In this document: positions 17,762-25,150 of the stretch, in pieces | How positions within the stretch are numbered: position 1 is the first letter of the stretch | Layout: every line of letters begins with the position of its first letter | Source of the DNA: Erysipelothrix larvae | Lineage (GTDB): Bacteria; Bacillota_I; Bacilli_A; Erysipelotrichales; Erysipelotrichaceae | Direction: 5' to 3' | NCBI RefSeq assembly: GCF_001545095.1 | Contig: NZ_CP013213.1 | Location: 1,350,001 to 1,382,000, forward strand | DNA length: 32,000 bases | The notes under the pieces: generated by a model | Databases searched by the model: none | What the model saw: the letters and a program-made list of their open reading frames with translations, nothing else | Told to the model about the DNA's origin: nothing | Program-made: the position numbers and the translations under genes

Positions 17762-18241
17762 TCATCGTTCCTTATTAGATTGAGTCCCTATATAAACATG
17801 TTTTTTGATTTCTTGGATATCATTGTGACTACAAACCATCCCAAGGTATTCAAGACCATAAAGATGTGCGAAGCGTTTGATGGTATATTCGCCTGCTTCA
17901 AGCATCCACGGCTCAGGTGCTTCACCTTGAAATACAAAGATAAGTTTTCGACCTTTTAGCGCATCTTTTCGAACGGGTCCATAAAAGCGTTAGAATAGCG
18001 TCCGTATTGATCCACAAATGTTGTGCCAGTATACTGGTGAACCAATCACAATTGTATCGGCTTCTTTCATTTTGTTGTATACATCACTAAATTGATCACC
18101 GGATAAAGTTTGTCCATAGACACTGATGCGATAATCAGGTAACATCAATGTTTCAAACTCTATATTTTTGAGTAATAAGTGTGTGAGATAATAAGTTTGT
18201 CCGTTTTTATTGGGACTGCCATTAATGAATAGTGTTTTCAT
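17762..18241 (-). pseudogene. Flavodoxin-like / NADPH-dependent FMN reductase family gene interrupted by one in-frame TAA
   Basis: N-terminal part is MKTLFINGSPNKNGQT...IVIGSPVYWHNICGSIRTLF, ending at a stop at 17990-17992. The same frame continues RFYGPVRKDALKGRKLIFVFQGEAPEPW... to TGA at 17762-17764. Confidence 0.7.
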
Positions 18242-22020: not shown

Positions 22021-22046
22021 AAAAAAAAAGAGTCTTTTGGACTCTT
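22021..22046 (-). terminator. Rho-independent terminator after the DAACS symporter gene
   Basis: Minus strand reads AAGAGTC-CAAAA-GACTCTT followed by a U-run (A-run 22021-22029 on plus). It begins 2 nt after the stop codon. Confidence 0.8.
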
Positions 22047-22047
22047 C

Positions 22048-23313
22048 TTAGTGGCTCATTTGAGCATCTACAATAACGGCTGCTGTCGCAGCACCTGTAA
22101 CATTAGTTGCTGTGCGTGCCATATCAACGAGGGCTGATATTGGTGCAAGAACGACGATGATTTCAATGGGTAATCCTGCAGCTGTAAGGACTGCTGTTGC
22201 GGAAATGGTAGCAGTTCCTGGGACACCTGCTGTACCGAAGGATACGATAATTGAGTATACAATTAGCAGTACATATTGTATTGGTGTAAATGGGATGTTA
22301 AGCGCGTTGATACTAAAGATTGCTAGGAGCATTGGCCACATACCTGTACATCCTGGCATTCCAGTATTCGCACCCAATCCGGATACAAAAGATGCGACAT
22401 CTTCCTTAACATCGAGTTTATGAATCAAGCGTTCAACAGTTACGGGTACTGTACCAATACTGCTTTGGGATGTAAAAGCAACCACTTGTGCTTCAAAGAT
22501 TCCTTTGAAGAATTTGATAGGGTTCATTTTTCCAAATAGCAAAACCAGTGTTCCATGAACAAGATAGGTTTGAATCATACTGATACCATATGCAATCAAT
22601 ATAATGGAAACAAAGGTTGTGAGATCTTTAGCACTATCCCTAGTCACAACATTCGCAATAAATGCCACAACCGCATACGGTGTGAGTTTGATAATTGATT
22701 TCACAATTTGTCCGATTAAGGCATTCATTGCTTCCGCAAAATCAATCAGTATCTTCCCTTGTGTTTCGTTTTTTGTATTGATATGAACCAAAGCTATTCC
22801 AACCATGATTGCGAAGATGATGATAGGAATCACTTGATTACTTGCAGCATGTTCAACGATATTGGATGGGAAGAAGGATACCAAGGTTTCAATGATGGTT
22901 GGTACTTCTTTTGCAGTTGCATCGGTTGGTAATGTCAGATTAAATCCTGATCCAACCTTTAAAGATCCTGCAATGATTAAGGTTAAGGTACTTGCAAGAA
23001 ATGTATTAAGGAGTAACCAAAATAAACTTCTCAGTCCCAATGATTTTAAGCGTTCAAGGTTATTAAGCTTTGAAATACTGTGAATAATACTAAATAGTAG
23101 TAGTGGTACAACAATGGCACTGATAAGGCGTGTAAAGATGGTTCCAAATATTGAAACATATTCAGTATGTCCTTGGAATGCAAATCCAAGGATTAAACCA
23201 AATAGCATCGCAAAGATCGTTCTTAATCCAAAGTTAACGTGTTTCTTTTCAAATTGATATAATATCCAAAATATAGCCAGCGCAACGGCTAAAGCAATCC
23301 ATGATAAATTCAT
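22048..23313 (-). CDS. Dicarboxylate/amino acid:cation symporter (DAACS/SDF family), possibly TcyP-like L-cystine transporter
   Basis: 421-aa polytopic ORF with the SDF hallmark FTSQSSIGTVPV and C-terminal hairpin regions. The N-terminal extra TM followed by KKHVNFGLR resembles TcyP-type members from memory. No obvious SD precedes its ATG. Confidence 0.85.
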   Translation of the reverse strand: MNLSWIALAVALAIFWILYQFEKKHVNFGLRTIFAMLFGLILGFAFQGHTEYVSIFGTIFTRLISAIVVPLLLFSIIHSISKLNNLERLKSLGLRSLFWLLLNTFLASTLTLIIAGSLKVGSGFNLTLPTDATAKEVPTIIETLVSFFPSNIVEHAASNQVIPIIIFAIMVGIALVHINTKNETQGKILIDFAEAMNALIGQIVKSIIKLTPYAVVAFIANVVTRDSAKDLTTFVSIILIAYGISMIQTYLVHGTLVLLFGKMNPIKFFKGIFEAQVVAFTSQSSIGTVPVTVERLIHKLDVKEDVASFVSGLGANTGMPGCTGMWPMLLAIFSINALNIPFTPIQYVLLIVYSIIVSFGTAGVPGTATISATAVLTAAGLPIEIIVVLAPISALVDMARTATNVTGAATAAVIVDAQMSH

Positions 23314-23329
23314 TATTTTTCTTTTAATT

Positions 23330-23362
23330 GATATACAGGTTCAATAGCTTTATCTGTATATC
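23330..23362 (-). other. Perfect 9-bp hairpin in the symporter leader
   Basis: GATATACAG (23330-23338) pairs with CTGTATATC (23354-23362) around a 15-nt loop. It ends 16 nt upstream of the symporter ATG. No U-run follows. Confidence 0.5.
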
Positions 23363-23379
23363 TTCTCTCTTTCTATGTC

Positions 23380-23403
23380 AAAAAAAAAGACACAAGTCGT
23401 GTC
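23380..23403 (-). terminator. Leader terminator / attenuator hairpin with U9
   Basis: Minus strand reads GACAC-GACTT-GTGTC (23403-23389) followed by nine U (A-run 23380-23388 on plus). It lies between the Cys-rich uORF and the symporter start. The stem is short (5 bp). Confidence 0.5.
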
Positions 23404-23432
23404 AATGTGTAAAATGGTATTCATAAATGGTT

Positions 23433-23510
23433 TTACCCACAACATCGACATGATAAAAATAATTGATTTATTCTCCCCTTTTCATAACATATACAATCTA
23501 ACATTCTCAT
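23433..23510 (-). CDS. 25-codon cysteine-rich upstream ORF (candidate leader peptide) MRMLDCICYEKGRINQLFLSCRCCG
   Basis: The strongest SD in the region (AAGGGAGGA, 23516-23524) lies 5-6 nt before ATG 23510. TAA is at 23433-23435. The peptide has 5 Cys in 25 residues, and 3 of the last 5 codons are TGT. Confidence 0.45.
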   Translation of the reverse strand: MRMLDCICYEKGRINQLFLSCRCCG

Positions 23511-23523
23511 GATTGTCCTCCCT

Positions 23524-23547
23524 TAAGCATATAAACATATATGCTTA
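23524..23547. promoter_or_regulatory. Perfect 10-bp inverted repeat (operator or 5' UTR hairpin) abutting the uORF SD
   Basis: TAAGCATATA-AACA-TATATGCTTA. Its minus-strand 3' arm ends on the first A of AAGGGAGG. Confidence 0.4.
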
Positions 23548-23740
23548 CTTAGGTTAACATAAGGCATCAATGTTTTCAATGAAGATGCTCACTGATACAT
23601 TTTCATTTCTTATGGTTCATGATACTGTTGTGATCGTTTATTTTCTGGGTAGATGTTGTGAAACAGGCACAGAGTTGGTATGATTCTAATGAGAAAACAA
23701 GTAAAACTTTATCTATGGTTTCTTGAATCACGGAGGGAAT

Positions 23741-25150
23741 ATGAAAACAATGGAAAATTGCACGATGTATCTTAAGGCTGCGGTGAATCTGTATGGTCTT
23801 TTGACTTACCAACAATTTGTGGATGTTTATAATCATTATGAAAAAACATCGGTTACAATTTCTGATTTTAAAGGGTTTATACTAGAGAATCTGGCGTTTT
23901 TTGATGAGTCTAATATTCTATATCATGATTTGCTGGGTGTCCCTTGGTTTTTTAACGAGATTGATGAATCAATGATTGATGATTTTTTATCTGACCGTTC
24001 TACAATCAAGCCCTATTTGCCAGAGAAACAGGAATTCTTAAAGTATACGAGTTCTTCGTATCACCAAGAAAGCGACGCGTATCAAAATTTGAAGCATATT
24101 GTCAAGATATGTTGTTTACAATCAGAAATTGATAACCCTGATATCATTGATGATATTGTTGATGACGCATTTGCGGACATACAAGTTGGTGCCAAAATGA
24201 CCCCCTTCTTTGATTGGATTTTTGCCTGTCTTGAAGGAGTCGTTGAAGAACAGAGCATGAATGTTACTTTTGCAGCAATTCAGGTCATTGATCATGTACG
24301 GTCTTTTCACATCTTTGGTAATACCTTAGTTGAAATTGGAGGTTCTTTTATGGATTACCTAAAAGAATATCAAACCGCCCAGCAATTAGGGCCGCGTTAC
24401 CAATACATTGAGACATCGAAACCTGCACGTAAATCTGAAATTAAAATCATTGAATATGCTACAGCGGCTTCTAATTTATATGGTGTGATTAGCATTCAAG
24501 ACTTTGTTGAGTTGTATAACCATTATGAGAAAAAGCCCATTACTGTTGAGTATGCAAATTCGGTGTTTGAATCGACTGGTCCCCTAGCTTTTTACGCTCA
24601 CGAAAAAAACATCCAGAGTTATTTATTTGATCCAAAGGATGATGAGAGTTATGAGGAGGTTAAAACAATCGTAACAAATCAGTTTGGTATGTCGCGATAT
24701 GTTCCTTCAAAAAAAGAATTCTTGAAGTATGTGTCAGCGGAGTATTTAGAACCCACGCTTCCATATCAATCGTTCAAGAAATTTCTAATGGAACATAAGC
24801 TTTTGAATAAAAAGAATGAATTTTATTATGATTTATGCATTGAAGAAATTCATGAGGCTGTCTTAGTTGGCTGGTCTTTTAGCGATATTATTGACTATCT
24901 TCGTGAAAGAATTGTCCCCATTGATTCTGATGAAGTTGAATTGGAACTTTATCATCTTCTGATTAATATAATGAATAACACCCGTCTATTTTCATCCAAT
25001 GGACATACACCAAATGAACGTGGAAAAATGACGTTTAATTTAGATATTAATGAAATACAAAACGACCAGTTTGTCAATGCTTCGCGTAATAAACCCTGTC
25101 CATGTGGTAGCGGTAAAAAGTATAAGAACTGTCATGGTAAGTTGAACTAG
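23741..25150 (+). CDS. SEC-C motif protein with an internal tandem duplication
   Basis: C-terminal CPCGSGKKYKNCHG is a SEC-C metal-binding motif. Two homologous modules of about 190 aa are visible (NLYG..FV.YNHYEK, P.K.EFLKY). ATG 23741 is preceded by GGAGGG. The track start at 23723 is TTG. Confidence 0.7.
   Translation: MKTMENCTMYLKAAVNLYGLLTYQQFVDVYNHYEKTSVTISDFKGFILENLAFFDESNILYHDLLGVPWFFNEIDESMIDDFLSDRSTIKPYLPEKQEFLKYTSSSYHQESDAYQNLKHIVKICCLQSEIDNPDIIDDIVDDAFADIQVGAKMTPFFDWIFACLEGVVEEQSMNVTFAAIQVIDHVRSFHIFGNTLVEIGGSFMDYLKEYQTAQQLGPRYQYIETSKPARKSEIKIIEYATAASNLYGVISIQDFVELYNHYEKKPITVEYANSVFESTGPLAFYAHEKNIQSYLFDPKDDESYEEVKTIVTNQFGMSRYVPSKKEFLKYVSAEYLEPTLPYQSFKKFLMEHKLLNKKNEFYYDLCIEEIHEAVLVGWSFSDIIDYLRERIVPIDSDEVELELYHLLINIMNNTRLFSSNGHTPNERGKMTFNLDINEIQNDQFVNASRNKPCPCGSGKKYKNCHGKLN

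Follow-up and report, generated by a model that had tools for sequence, protein, structure and literature searches.

Does the cysteine-rich leader that precedes a DAACS-family symporter gene in Erysipelothrix larvae sense cysteine and, if it does, which of its codons act as the sensor? The question was raised by a 32-kb stretch of E. larvae DNA (the window; coordinates of E. larvae features are window positions), in which the leader and the symporter gene are read on the minus strand. A previous reading of this DNA, made from the letters alone (the sequence-only reading), had proposed that a short upstream open reading frame (uORF) rich in Cys codons, together with a terminator-like hairpin, forms a cysteine-sensing attenuator. 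In Bacillota, T-boxes, riboswitches and RNA-binding proteins are the devices usually credited with amino-acid sensing in mRNA leaders; reports and predictions of Cys-codon leader ORFs have so far been confined to Actinobacteria and Rhodobacterales.

The general idea of a Cys-codon leader with a terminator, acting as a cysteine-sensing attenuator, was upheld by its conservation in seven leaders, whereas the specific mechanism put forward for it was not. Judged by sequence comparison, this is a real, conserved and previously unannotated cis-regulatory element, and we consider it probable, though well short of certain, that it acts as a Cys-responsive, ribosome-mediated transcription attenuator of a monocistronic symporter gene. 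We are less confident of the exact helices and of the pause step than of the attenuator as a whole.

Conservation of the leader in Erysipelothrix

The Shine-Dalgarno (SD) sequence, the 25-codon ORF, the five TGT codons and the hairpin followed by nine U residues were all found where the sequence-only reading had placed them (Table 1). All five Cys codons of the ORF are TGT (C6 at 23495, C8 at 23489, C21 at 23450, C23 at 23444 and C24 at 23441). The symporter ATG (23313) had correctly been described as lacking a recognisable SD of its own: it is preceded by UUAAAAGAAAAAUA, without any GGAGG-like SD, and an in-frame TGA is located 30 nt upstream of it.

Orthologues of the symporter (60–67% protein identity) were found by protein search and their DNA was fetched by exact-gene look-up, which returned no record for the E. 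larvae symporter gene itself. We then checked, as the sequence-only reading had suggested, whether leaders of related symporters also carry a short SD-led ORF with Cys codons, and such an ORF was present at six other loci. The resulting set of seven leaders comprises those of E. larvae, L057/58/59 (sp. HDW6B type), L060 (E. inopinata), L061 (sp. HDW6C), L062 (E. urinaevulpis), L063 and L073. The six loci share the E. larvae layout, in the order (i) promoter (TTGACA-17-TAT(G/T)AT), (ii) AT-rich palindrome, (iii) SD, (iv) ORF, (v) terminator and (vi) symporter gene. The putative E. larvae promoter aligns with these promoters; it was not listed by a consensus scan because its −10 hexamer matches at only 3 of 6 positions. 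A GGAGG-type SD lies 5–7 nt 5′ of the ATG in all seven leaders, and the ORF length ranges from 18 to 30 codons. The orthologue terminators consist of a 6–9 bp stem followed by U6–8; the E. larvae hairpin and U-run align with them and were scored as terminator-like by the consensus scan.

The leader peptides are MEILCCCTFSNYNGNTKV and MGIQCCCTFSNDNGNTKV (L057 and L058, respectively), MNYFVKCCKLESQSVQFLYF (E. inopinata), MNLVICCKTQPTTNTHMCSFTHVK (L061), MKKSCCCKIINNKYNLTGDF (E. urinaevulpis), MIKSCCMCNKFKSNTAGVFLSL (L063) and METTTFNMSNKLCCTKTVLFFRCCNILNNL (L073), and they show little similarity to one another apart from their cysteines. Cys is the commonest residue (23/159, 14.5%, vs 1.16% in the proteins of the window) and is arranged in the patterns CCC, CC, CCxC and CxC. 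Across the seven leaders, TGY triplets are enriched in the reading frame (23/159 in frame 0 vs 10/304 in the other frames; Fisher p = 3e-5), and the wobble position of the Cys codons varies, with UGU and UGC alternating. A survey of 175 kb of Erysipelothrix DNA covered approximately 59 short SD-led ORFs other than the leaders, only 3 of which contain CC or CxC. The Cys run occupies codons 5–8 in five of the six orthologous leaders and codons 13–14 in L073; four of the six have no Cys codons near the ORF end, and an in-frame terminal CGA-UGU-UGU is common to E. larvae and L073 only.

The distance from the terminator U-run to the symporter ATG is 13–22 nt in five of the six orthologous leaders (57 nt in L073), and in these six loci the symporter gene has an SD. 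A gap of 13–22 nt leaves no room for a promoter, and so in these five loci the symporter gene must be transcribed through the terminator. In E. larvae, the symporter stop codon is directly followed by another terminator, and thus the leader and the symporter gene constitute a monocistronic unit. An SD-led Cys ORF conserved together with a terminator inside the symporter leader is the signature expected of a leader-peptide attenuator keyed to cysteine.

No leader ORF had been called as a gene in the retrieved orthologous loci, and a look-up among 15 billion predicted proteins, for which the 18-residue peptides of L057/L058 are too short, gave no match to the six leader peptides of at least 20 residues (that of E. 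larvae included). No Rfam family matched the window at the gathering score, permissive thresholds gave only noise in the region 23250–23800 (E ≥ 0.84), and in five orthologous loci no T-box, S-box or other family was detected at the Cys-uORF leaders.

A predicted switch dependent on ribosome position

The minimum free energy (MFE) fold of the E. larvae leader holds an antiterminator and not the terminator (−13.7 to −15 vs −5.9 kcal/mol). The antiterminator helix (23450–23400) takes up the 5′ arm of the terminator; its duplex energy of −12.1 kcal/mol (RNAduplex) was reached by 4% of shuffles, and the expected number of antiterminator (R2:R3) pairs was 9.4 vs 2.8 in shuffled sequences (p = 0.01). 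A pairing between UGUGGGUAAAA and UUUUACACA, named in the sequence-only reading, does exist, but only as the inner part of this longer and stronger helix. L073 has a homologous antiterminator helix (UUCGAUGU:ACAUCGAA), one strand of which is its terminal CGA-UGU-UGU.

To model the ribosome, the RNA between the AUG and the ribosome's leading edge was masked in full, and the probability of the terminator, P(terminator), was then computed. An earlier 27-nt mask was dropped, since it left room for unrealistic pairs spanning the ribosome and concealed the switch of L073. In E. larvae, P(terminator) was 0.00–0.01 with the A site at C6 or C8, and 0.98–0.99 with the A site at C21, C23, C24 or the stop codon. 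Comparison of a ribosome at the first Cys codon with one at the stop codon gave values of 0.01/0.99 for E. larvae and 0.00/0.94 for L073; a partial switch was predicted for L061 (0.34/0.94) and L062 (0.42/0.92). For untranslated leader RNA, P(terminator) was 0.13 (E. larvae) and 0.00 (L073), i.e. read-through is predicted. When the segment between ribosome and terminator was shuffled, the per-leader p values were 0.025, 0.129, 0.204, 0.095, 0.025, 0.83 and 0.010; their Fisher combination for the seven leaders (p = 9e-4) is indicative only, because the leaders are related.

An alignment of the leaders revealed that most of the invariant columns inside the leader ORF belong to a single block, a U-run followed by C.UG (23452–23449 in the window). 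In all seven leaders, a hairpin of 4–8 bp ends 0–3 nt before a run of U4–7, at nt 52–63 of the ORF. TTNTTT, the non-template-strand motif of NusG-dependent pausing in B. subtilis (PMC9226507), is matched in four of the seven, with the window copy TTATTT at 23462–23457. By analogy, we infer that the hairpin and the U-run form an RNA polymerase pause site. In the attenuator of the vmlR uORF, pausing gives the ribosome time to act (PMC9226507).

Proposed mechanism

In the mechanism that we favour, transcription would start approximately 35 nt upstream of the SD-led leader ORF, and RNA polymerase would pause about 55 nt into the ORF, at the hairpin and TTATTT, which would give a ribosome time to load. 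The pause would be held until the ribosome either stalls at Cys codons or catches up. With Cys-tRNA plentiful, the ribosome would reach the ORF end and cover UGUCGAUGU, which could then no longer pair with ACAUUGACA; the GACAC/GUGUC hairpin with its U9 would form and transcription would stop at about 23380. With Cys-tRNA scarce, the ribosome would stall at C6/C8 (23495–23487), leaving the antiterminator 23450–23400 (approximately −14 kcal/mol) free to form, to sequester the 5′ arm of the terminator and so to permit read-through into the symporter gene. The early Cys codons would thus be the sensors, and the terminal CRCC codons would serve mainly as the RNA strand of the antiterminator. Read-through upon a stall at the early Cys codons is a fitting logic for an importer.

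Several observations weigh against the proposed attenuator or parts of it. In L057, L060 and L063, P(terminator) at equilibrium was at least 0.92 at any ribosome position; their terminators are strong (−11 to −13 kcal/mol), and their candidate antiterminators (−8 to −9 kcal/mol) were not better than those of shuffled sequences. The best candidate helices of these three leaders are located immediately 3′ of the stop codon and would there be masked by a ribosome at termination; any antiterminator would have to act kinetically. Antiterminator (R2:R3) pairing was significant in E. larvae only, the antiterminators of the other species being no more than candidates, and a test of cognate vs swapped antiterminators was not significant (98/720); R1:R2 pairing was nominally significant in L057, L058 and L060 (p = 0.02–0.05). 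In E. larvae itself, the terminator stem is weak (5 bp, −5.9 kcal/mol, z = −2.5) and the early Cys codons are not adjacent (C-I-C). Moreover, the seven leaders share ancestry and are not independent samples, and six Erysipelothrix-type orthologues (L001, L064, L065/66, L067, L068 and L069-72) have neither the uORF nor its terminator. The Cys leader element is therefore clade-restricted. The main caveat specific to the E. larvae locus is its 66-nt spacer between terminator and symporter gene, which opens with a perfect TTGACA (23382–23377), accompanied by only a poor −10 candidate; a weak internal promoter at this site could bypass the attenuator.

When the symporter protein was used to scan genome and metagenome collections, the relatives obtained were at best 61% and 34–36% identical. 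No uORF was detected upstream of the symporter in the two closest loci from these scans (L001 and L002), and a scan of 40 more distant symporter loci revealed a single Cys uORF, which had no terminator and was taken as a chance occurrence.

Alternative explanations

It is conceivable, although unlikely, that the ORF encodes a stand-alone Cys-rich micropeptide (e.g. a metal- or redox-active one) with its own promoter and terminator, the symporter gene being expressed through leaky read-through or from a promoter of its own. The strong SD, the dedicated promoter and the terminator placed directly after the ORF would all suit such a gene, as would the 57–66 nt spacers with −35-like hexamers that follow the terminator in E. 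larvae and L073. However, neither the length (18–30 aa) nor the sequence of the peptide is conserved, the cysteines excepted, and none of the six peptides of at least 20 residues has been called as a protein. The ORF is found with this symporter family in every case and is missing along with the terminator in the six orthologous loci named above, and the short gap between U-run and symporter ATG in five of the six orthologous leaders makes leader and symporter gene one transcription unit. The E. larvae spacer contains further features: a 9-bp inverted repeat (Table 1), which is absent from the orthologues with 13–22 nt spacers, and a purine tract (AGAAAGAGAGAAG, within 23382–23314) that pairs with the U9 in the MFE fold. 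The spacer, with its TTGACA and these features, could represent an internal promoter, an operator or the remnant of an ancestral SD.

Another explanation, which we regard as quite unlikely, is that a transcription factor bound at the palindrome 23547–23524 exerts the main control, and that the uORF and terminator are a constitutive damper without amino-acid sensing. Both perfect palindromes that the sequence-only reading had noticed (10 bp at 23547–23524 and 9 bp at 23362–23330) are present and supported by folding. The motif (T)AAACATATATGTT(T)A occurs upstream of symporter orthologues with or without the Cys uORF and terminator: in L057-L063 immediately 5′ of the uORF SD, and further in L064 (~1420–1450), L067 (~1450–1480), L068 (~1465–1485) and L073 (82–96 and ~313–330). 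It is thus more widely kept than the uORF, since L064, L067 and L068 lack both uORF and terminator. In L073, the motif is situated between the −35 and −10 hexamers, with a second copy before the symporter SD, in the 57-nt spacer. The retention of the palindrome without uORF and terminator, and its position inside the L073 promoter spacer, indicate a DNA operator rather than a part of the RNA switch, and the upstream palindrome is most likely such an operator, providing a second layer of control. Nevertheless, a factor acting there as the main control would leave unexplained both the in-frame Cys run in every terminator-bearing leader and the dependence of the predicted fold on ribosome position. 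Dual control, by the attenuator and a palindrome-bound factor together, is likely. In the 32-kb window, the palindrome core has seven matches at no more than two mismatches (4.7 expected), the leader copy being the only close one; the literature search yielded nothing relevant on the palindrome sequence, which is presumably unlike the published CymR box.

The sequence-only reading had assigned the sensing to the terminal Cys codons: a ribosome stalled there would mask UGUGGGUAAAA (23441–23431) and free UUUUACACA (23414–23406), whose ACACA would pair with the UGUGU of the terminator 3′ arm and thereby cause read-through. The named segments can pair on paper, and the terminal CGA-UGU-UGU is kept in frame in L073. 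The folding results nevertheless make this version very unlikely. A ribosome at C21, C23 or C24 favours the terminator, with the values given above or, with a narrower mask, 0.69–0.95; the RNA left free (23430–23376) folds only into the terminator, and the ACACA:UGUGU helix was not competitive in any fold. The helix between the two segments belongs to the antiterminator. The 3′ end of the ORF is the 5′ strand of that structure, and a ribosome on the terminal CRCC therefore favours termination; the comparison of ribosome-covered and free folds that had been recommended yielded the terminator, and not the alternative helix, when the ORF end was covered. The distribution of Cys codons in the orthologues, with the run at codons 5–8 and four of six leaders without Cys near the ORF end, points the same way.

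Finally, a structured non-coding RNA (a riboswitch or protein-binding element), with Cys codons as a by-product of UGU/UGC-rich motifs, appears highly improbable, since the invariance at the RNA level of the U-run and C.UG block (outside the ORF in L057) and the clear use of the terminal UGU codons of E. larvae and L073 as a pairing strand are outweighed by (i) the SD, ATG and Cys frame kept in all seven leaders, with TGY enriched in frame 0 only and variable wobble positions, (ii) the lack of an Rfam match, and (iii) the failure of a conserved multi-helix, aptamer-like structure to emerge from the leader folds.

Comparison with known leader systems

The proposed attenuator resembles those of the trp, his, leu, thr and pheA systems of E. 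coli and Salmonella, with which it shares a short SD-led leader ORF enriched in codons for the sensed amino acid, a terminator between ORF and gene and, as predicted here, mutually exclusive helices chosen by the ribosome and a hairpin pause in the leader. It differs from them in occurring in Bacillota (Erysipelotrichales) and in governing a transporter instead of a biosynthetic operon. In addition, the E. larvae and L073 leaders are three-segment devices in which the ORF end is itself the antiterminator strand, so that untranslated RNA is predicted to read through and not to be super-attenuated, and the Erysipelothrix leader has no sequence similarity to the leader families of Rfam.

Cys-codon leaders of other bacteria provide a second comparison. 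In mycobacteria, the polycysteine small ORFs (Ms5788A and others) are leaderless and act at the translational level: the poly-Cys tract pairs with the SD of the downstream gene, an intrinsic terminator is lacking, and a pair of adjacent Cys codons is reported to be enough (bioRxiv 10.1101/834739). The Erysipelothrix leader has in common with them the Cys codons of an upstream ORF, the sensing of Cys-tRNA and a cysteine-related target (the last two as proposed here); unlike them, it has an SD-led ORF, and a terminator with a U-run in place of an SD-sequestering duplex. No Cys tract paired with the symporter ribosome-binding site was observed in the E. larvae leader fold. Cys-codon leader ORFs have been predicted in other Actinobacteria as well (PMC1262725). 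In Rhodobacterales, uORFC-8-2, a predicted attenuator with tandem Cys codons and an intrinsic terminator, is located upstream of cysS (PMC8632094). That motif is alpha-proteobacterial, targets the cysteinyl-tRNA synthetase, carries its Cys codons (14–15) inside the first stem and is unrelated in sequence.

Within Bacillota, the closest parallels are vmlR and tlrB of B. subtilis (PMC9226507), which likewise have an SD-led uORF, a pause hairpin with TTNTTT and an antiterminator/terminator pair, and in which a stalled ribosome causes read-through. There, however, an antibiotic induces the stall at a 3-codon uORF and pausing has been demonstrated, whereas here pausing is proposed by analogy. As in T-box, S-box (SAM-I) and CymR control in Bacillota, genes for uptake or synthesis would be induced when Cys or Met is limiting. 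The lineage of Acholeplasma is related to Erysipelotrichales. In Acholeplasma, a Phe leader has been predicted (PMC8632094). Our literature search found no report of such a leader in Bacillota for cysteine, or for any transporter.

We tentatively propose, well aware that this goes further than the attenuator itself and may well prove wrong, that Erysipelothrix evolved a Cys leader attenuator of its own, the first for cysteine in Bacillota and the first governing an importer: a three-segment, translation-dependent terminator, synchronised with the ribosome by a conserved NusG-type pause at the hairpin and U-run and set atop a separate operator. If so, ribosome-mediated attenuation would extend to a phylum and a class of target genes that are both new to it, and ribosome position would direct termination in the lineage of B. 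subtilis, a model organism in which transcription and translation are regarded as uncoupled. The leader would then offer a compact natural system of ribosome-steered termination where coupling is thought to be weak, and it could mark a wider, so far overlooked Cys regulon in Erysipelotrichales. It would also point to a possible function, cystine/cysteine uptake, for an uncharacterised DAACS subfamily, and illustrates how unannotated ORFs of 18–30 codons may be recognised as regulators through distant orthologous leaders. It is worth mentioning that the genus Erysipelothrix includes the animal pathogen E. rhusiopathiae.

Two further control devices were noted near orthologous symporter genes. 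In L062 (E. urinaevulpis), a T-box (RF00230, 3817–4055, 115.7 bits) was identified before a Lipoprotein_9 (MetQ/NlpA-like) gene. It belongs to this next gene, directly downstream of the Cys-leader symporter, which places two sensors of tRNA charging side by side; Erysipelothrix thus uses both T-box and Cys-leader devices. In L065 (1440–1485; the same in L066), which has no uORF, a terminator-like hairpin (ACACAUAC-CAGUUGA-GUAUGUGU, followed by AUUUUUAU) is situated right before the symporter SD, which suggests a different mode of control for the same symporter gene.

The symporter and its genomic context

The symporter encoded in the window is 100% identical to E. larvae AMC93632.1/WP_067632590.1. 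It is named 'L-cystine uptake protein TcyP' in UniRef, the only source of this name, and none of the specific NCBIfam models reached its cut-off with this protein, which weighs against a firm assignment of its substrate. The protein is probably a cystine/cysteine importer; the evidence for this is circumstantial and consists of the Cys leader, the UniRef name, the PF01053 neighbour in L069-72 and a PatB C-S lyase nearby.

Table 1. Features of the leader and symporter locus of E. larvae (window positions)
Feature	Coordinates	Strand	Details
Putative leader promoter	23551..23579	-	−35 TTGAAA 23579-23574, 17-nt spacer, −10 TAACCT 23556-23551
Operator-like palindrome	23524..23547	.	Core AAGCATATATGTTT 23546-23533; RNA fold −10.5 kcal/mol, z = −3.7
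Palindrome sequence, proposed site of a putative binding factor			TAAACATATATGTTTA
Shine-Dalgarno sequence of leader ORF	23516..23524	-	AAGGGAGGA; 5 nt 5′ of ATG 23510
Leader ORF	23433..23510	-	MRMLDCICYEKGRINQLFLSCRCCG; 25 codons + stop TAA 23435-23433; 5 Cys
Early Cys codons, proposed sensors	23487..23495	-	C6 23495-23493, C8 23489-23487
Small hairpin with U-run, proposed pause site	23455..23475	-	GAGAAUAA-AUCAA-UUAUUUUU; TTATTT (23462-23457)
Antiterminator helix	23400..23450	-	UGUCGAUGU 23450-23442 (C21-R22-C23) : ACAUUGACA 23408-23400, plus inner pairs
Intrinsic terminator	23380..23403	-	GACAC-GACUU-GUGUC 23403-23389 + U9 23388-23380
9-bp inverted repeat	23330..23362	.	GATATACAG-N15-CTGTATATC; −9.7 kcal/mol, z = −4.8; E. 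larvae-specific
DAACS (PF00375, SDF) symporter gene, proposed regulated gene	22048..23313	-	421 aa; Pfam E = 3e-97
Symporter's own terminator	22021..22047	-	GAGUC-CAAAA-GACUC + U-run; read from sequence

One uncultured Erysipelothrix-type lineage is represented by L069-L072 (e.g. L069 139–2823). Its symporter orthologue (63% identity) lacks a separate leader and follows a PF01053 (Cys/Met metabolism, PLP-dependent) gene at a distance of 90 nt, and the two apparently form an operon.

The next unit downstream of the E. larvae symporter gene (21656–18422, minus strand) comprises genes for an MFS transporter, for a DUF3737 protein and for a C-S lyase of the PatB family (TIGR04350, 415 bits vs a cut-off of 340). 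This operon lies 0.4 kb downstream of the symporter gene and has its own promoter (TTGACT-17-TAGACT, ~21771–21743); it is possibly a sulfur amino-acid cluster.

The product of the gene divergent from the leader (23723–25150, plus strand) is 475 aa long and has two internal repeats as well as, at its C-terminus, a SEC-C metal-binding motif (PF02810). At most of the orthologous loci the divergent neighbour is instead an HI0933-like flavoprotein.

One further SD-led ORF with a CC pair was considered in the window (MTHCCIIT..., start 17765, minus strand) and was rejected as a chance occurrence, because it has no terminator and coincides with the end of a disrupted flavodoxin-like gene; it overlaps the leader of an aldo/keto reductase gene. 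The frame of the disrupted gene, for a flavodoxin-like NAD(P)H-dependent reductase (MKTLFINGSPNKNG..., 18240–17790, minus strand), runs into a stop near 17990 and resumes in a different frame, and is thus either a pseudogene or the result of a sequencing frameshift.

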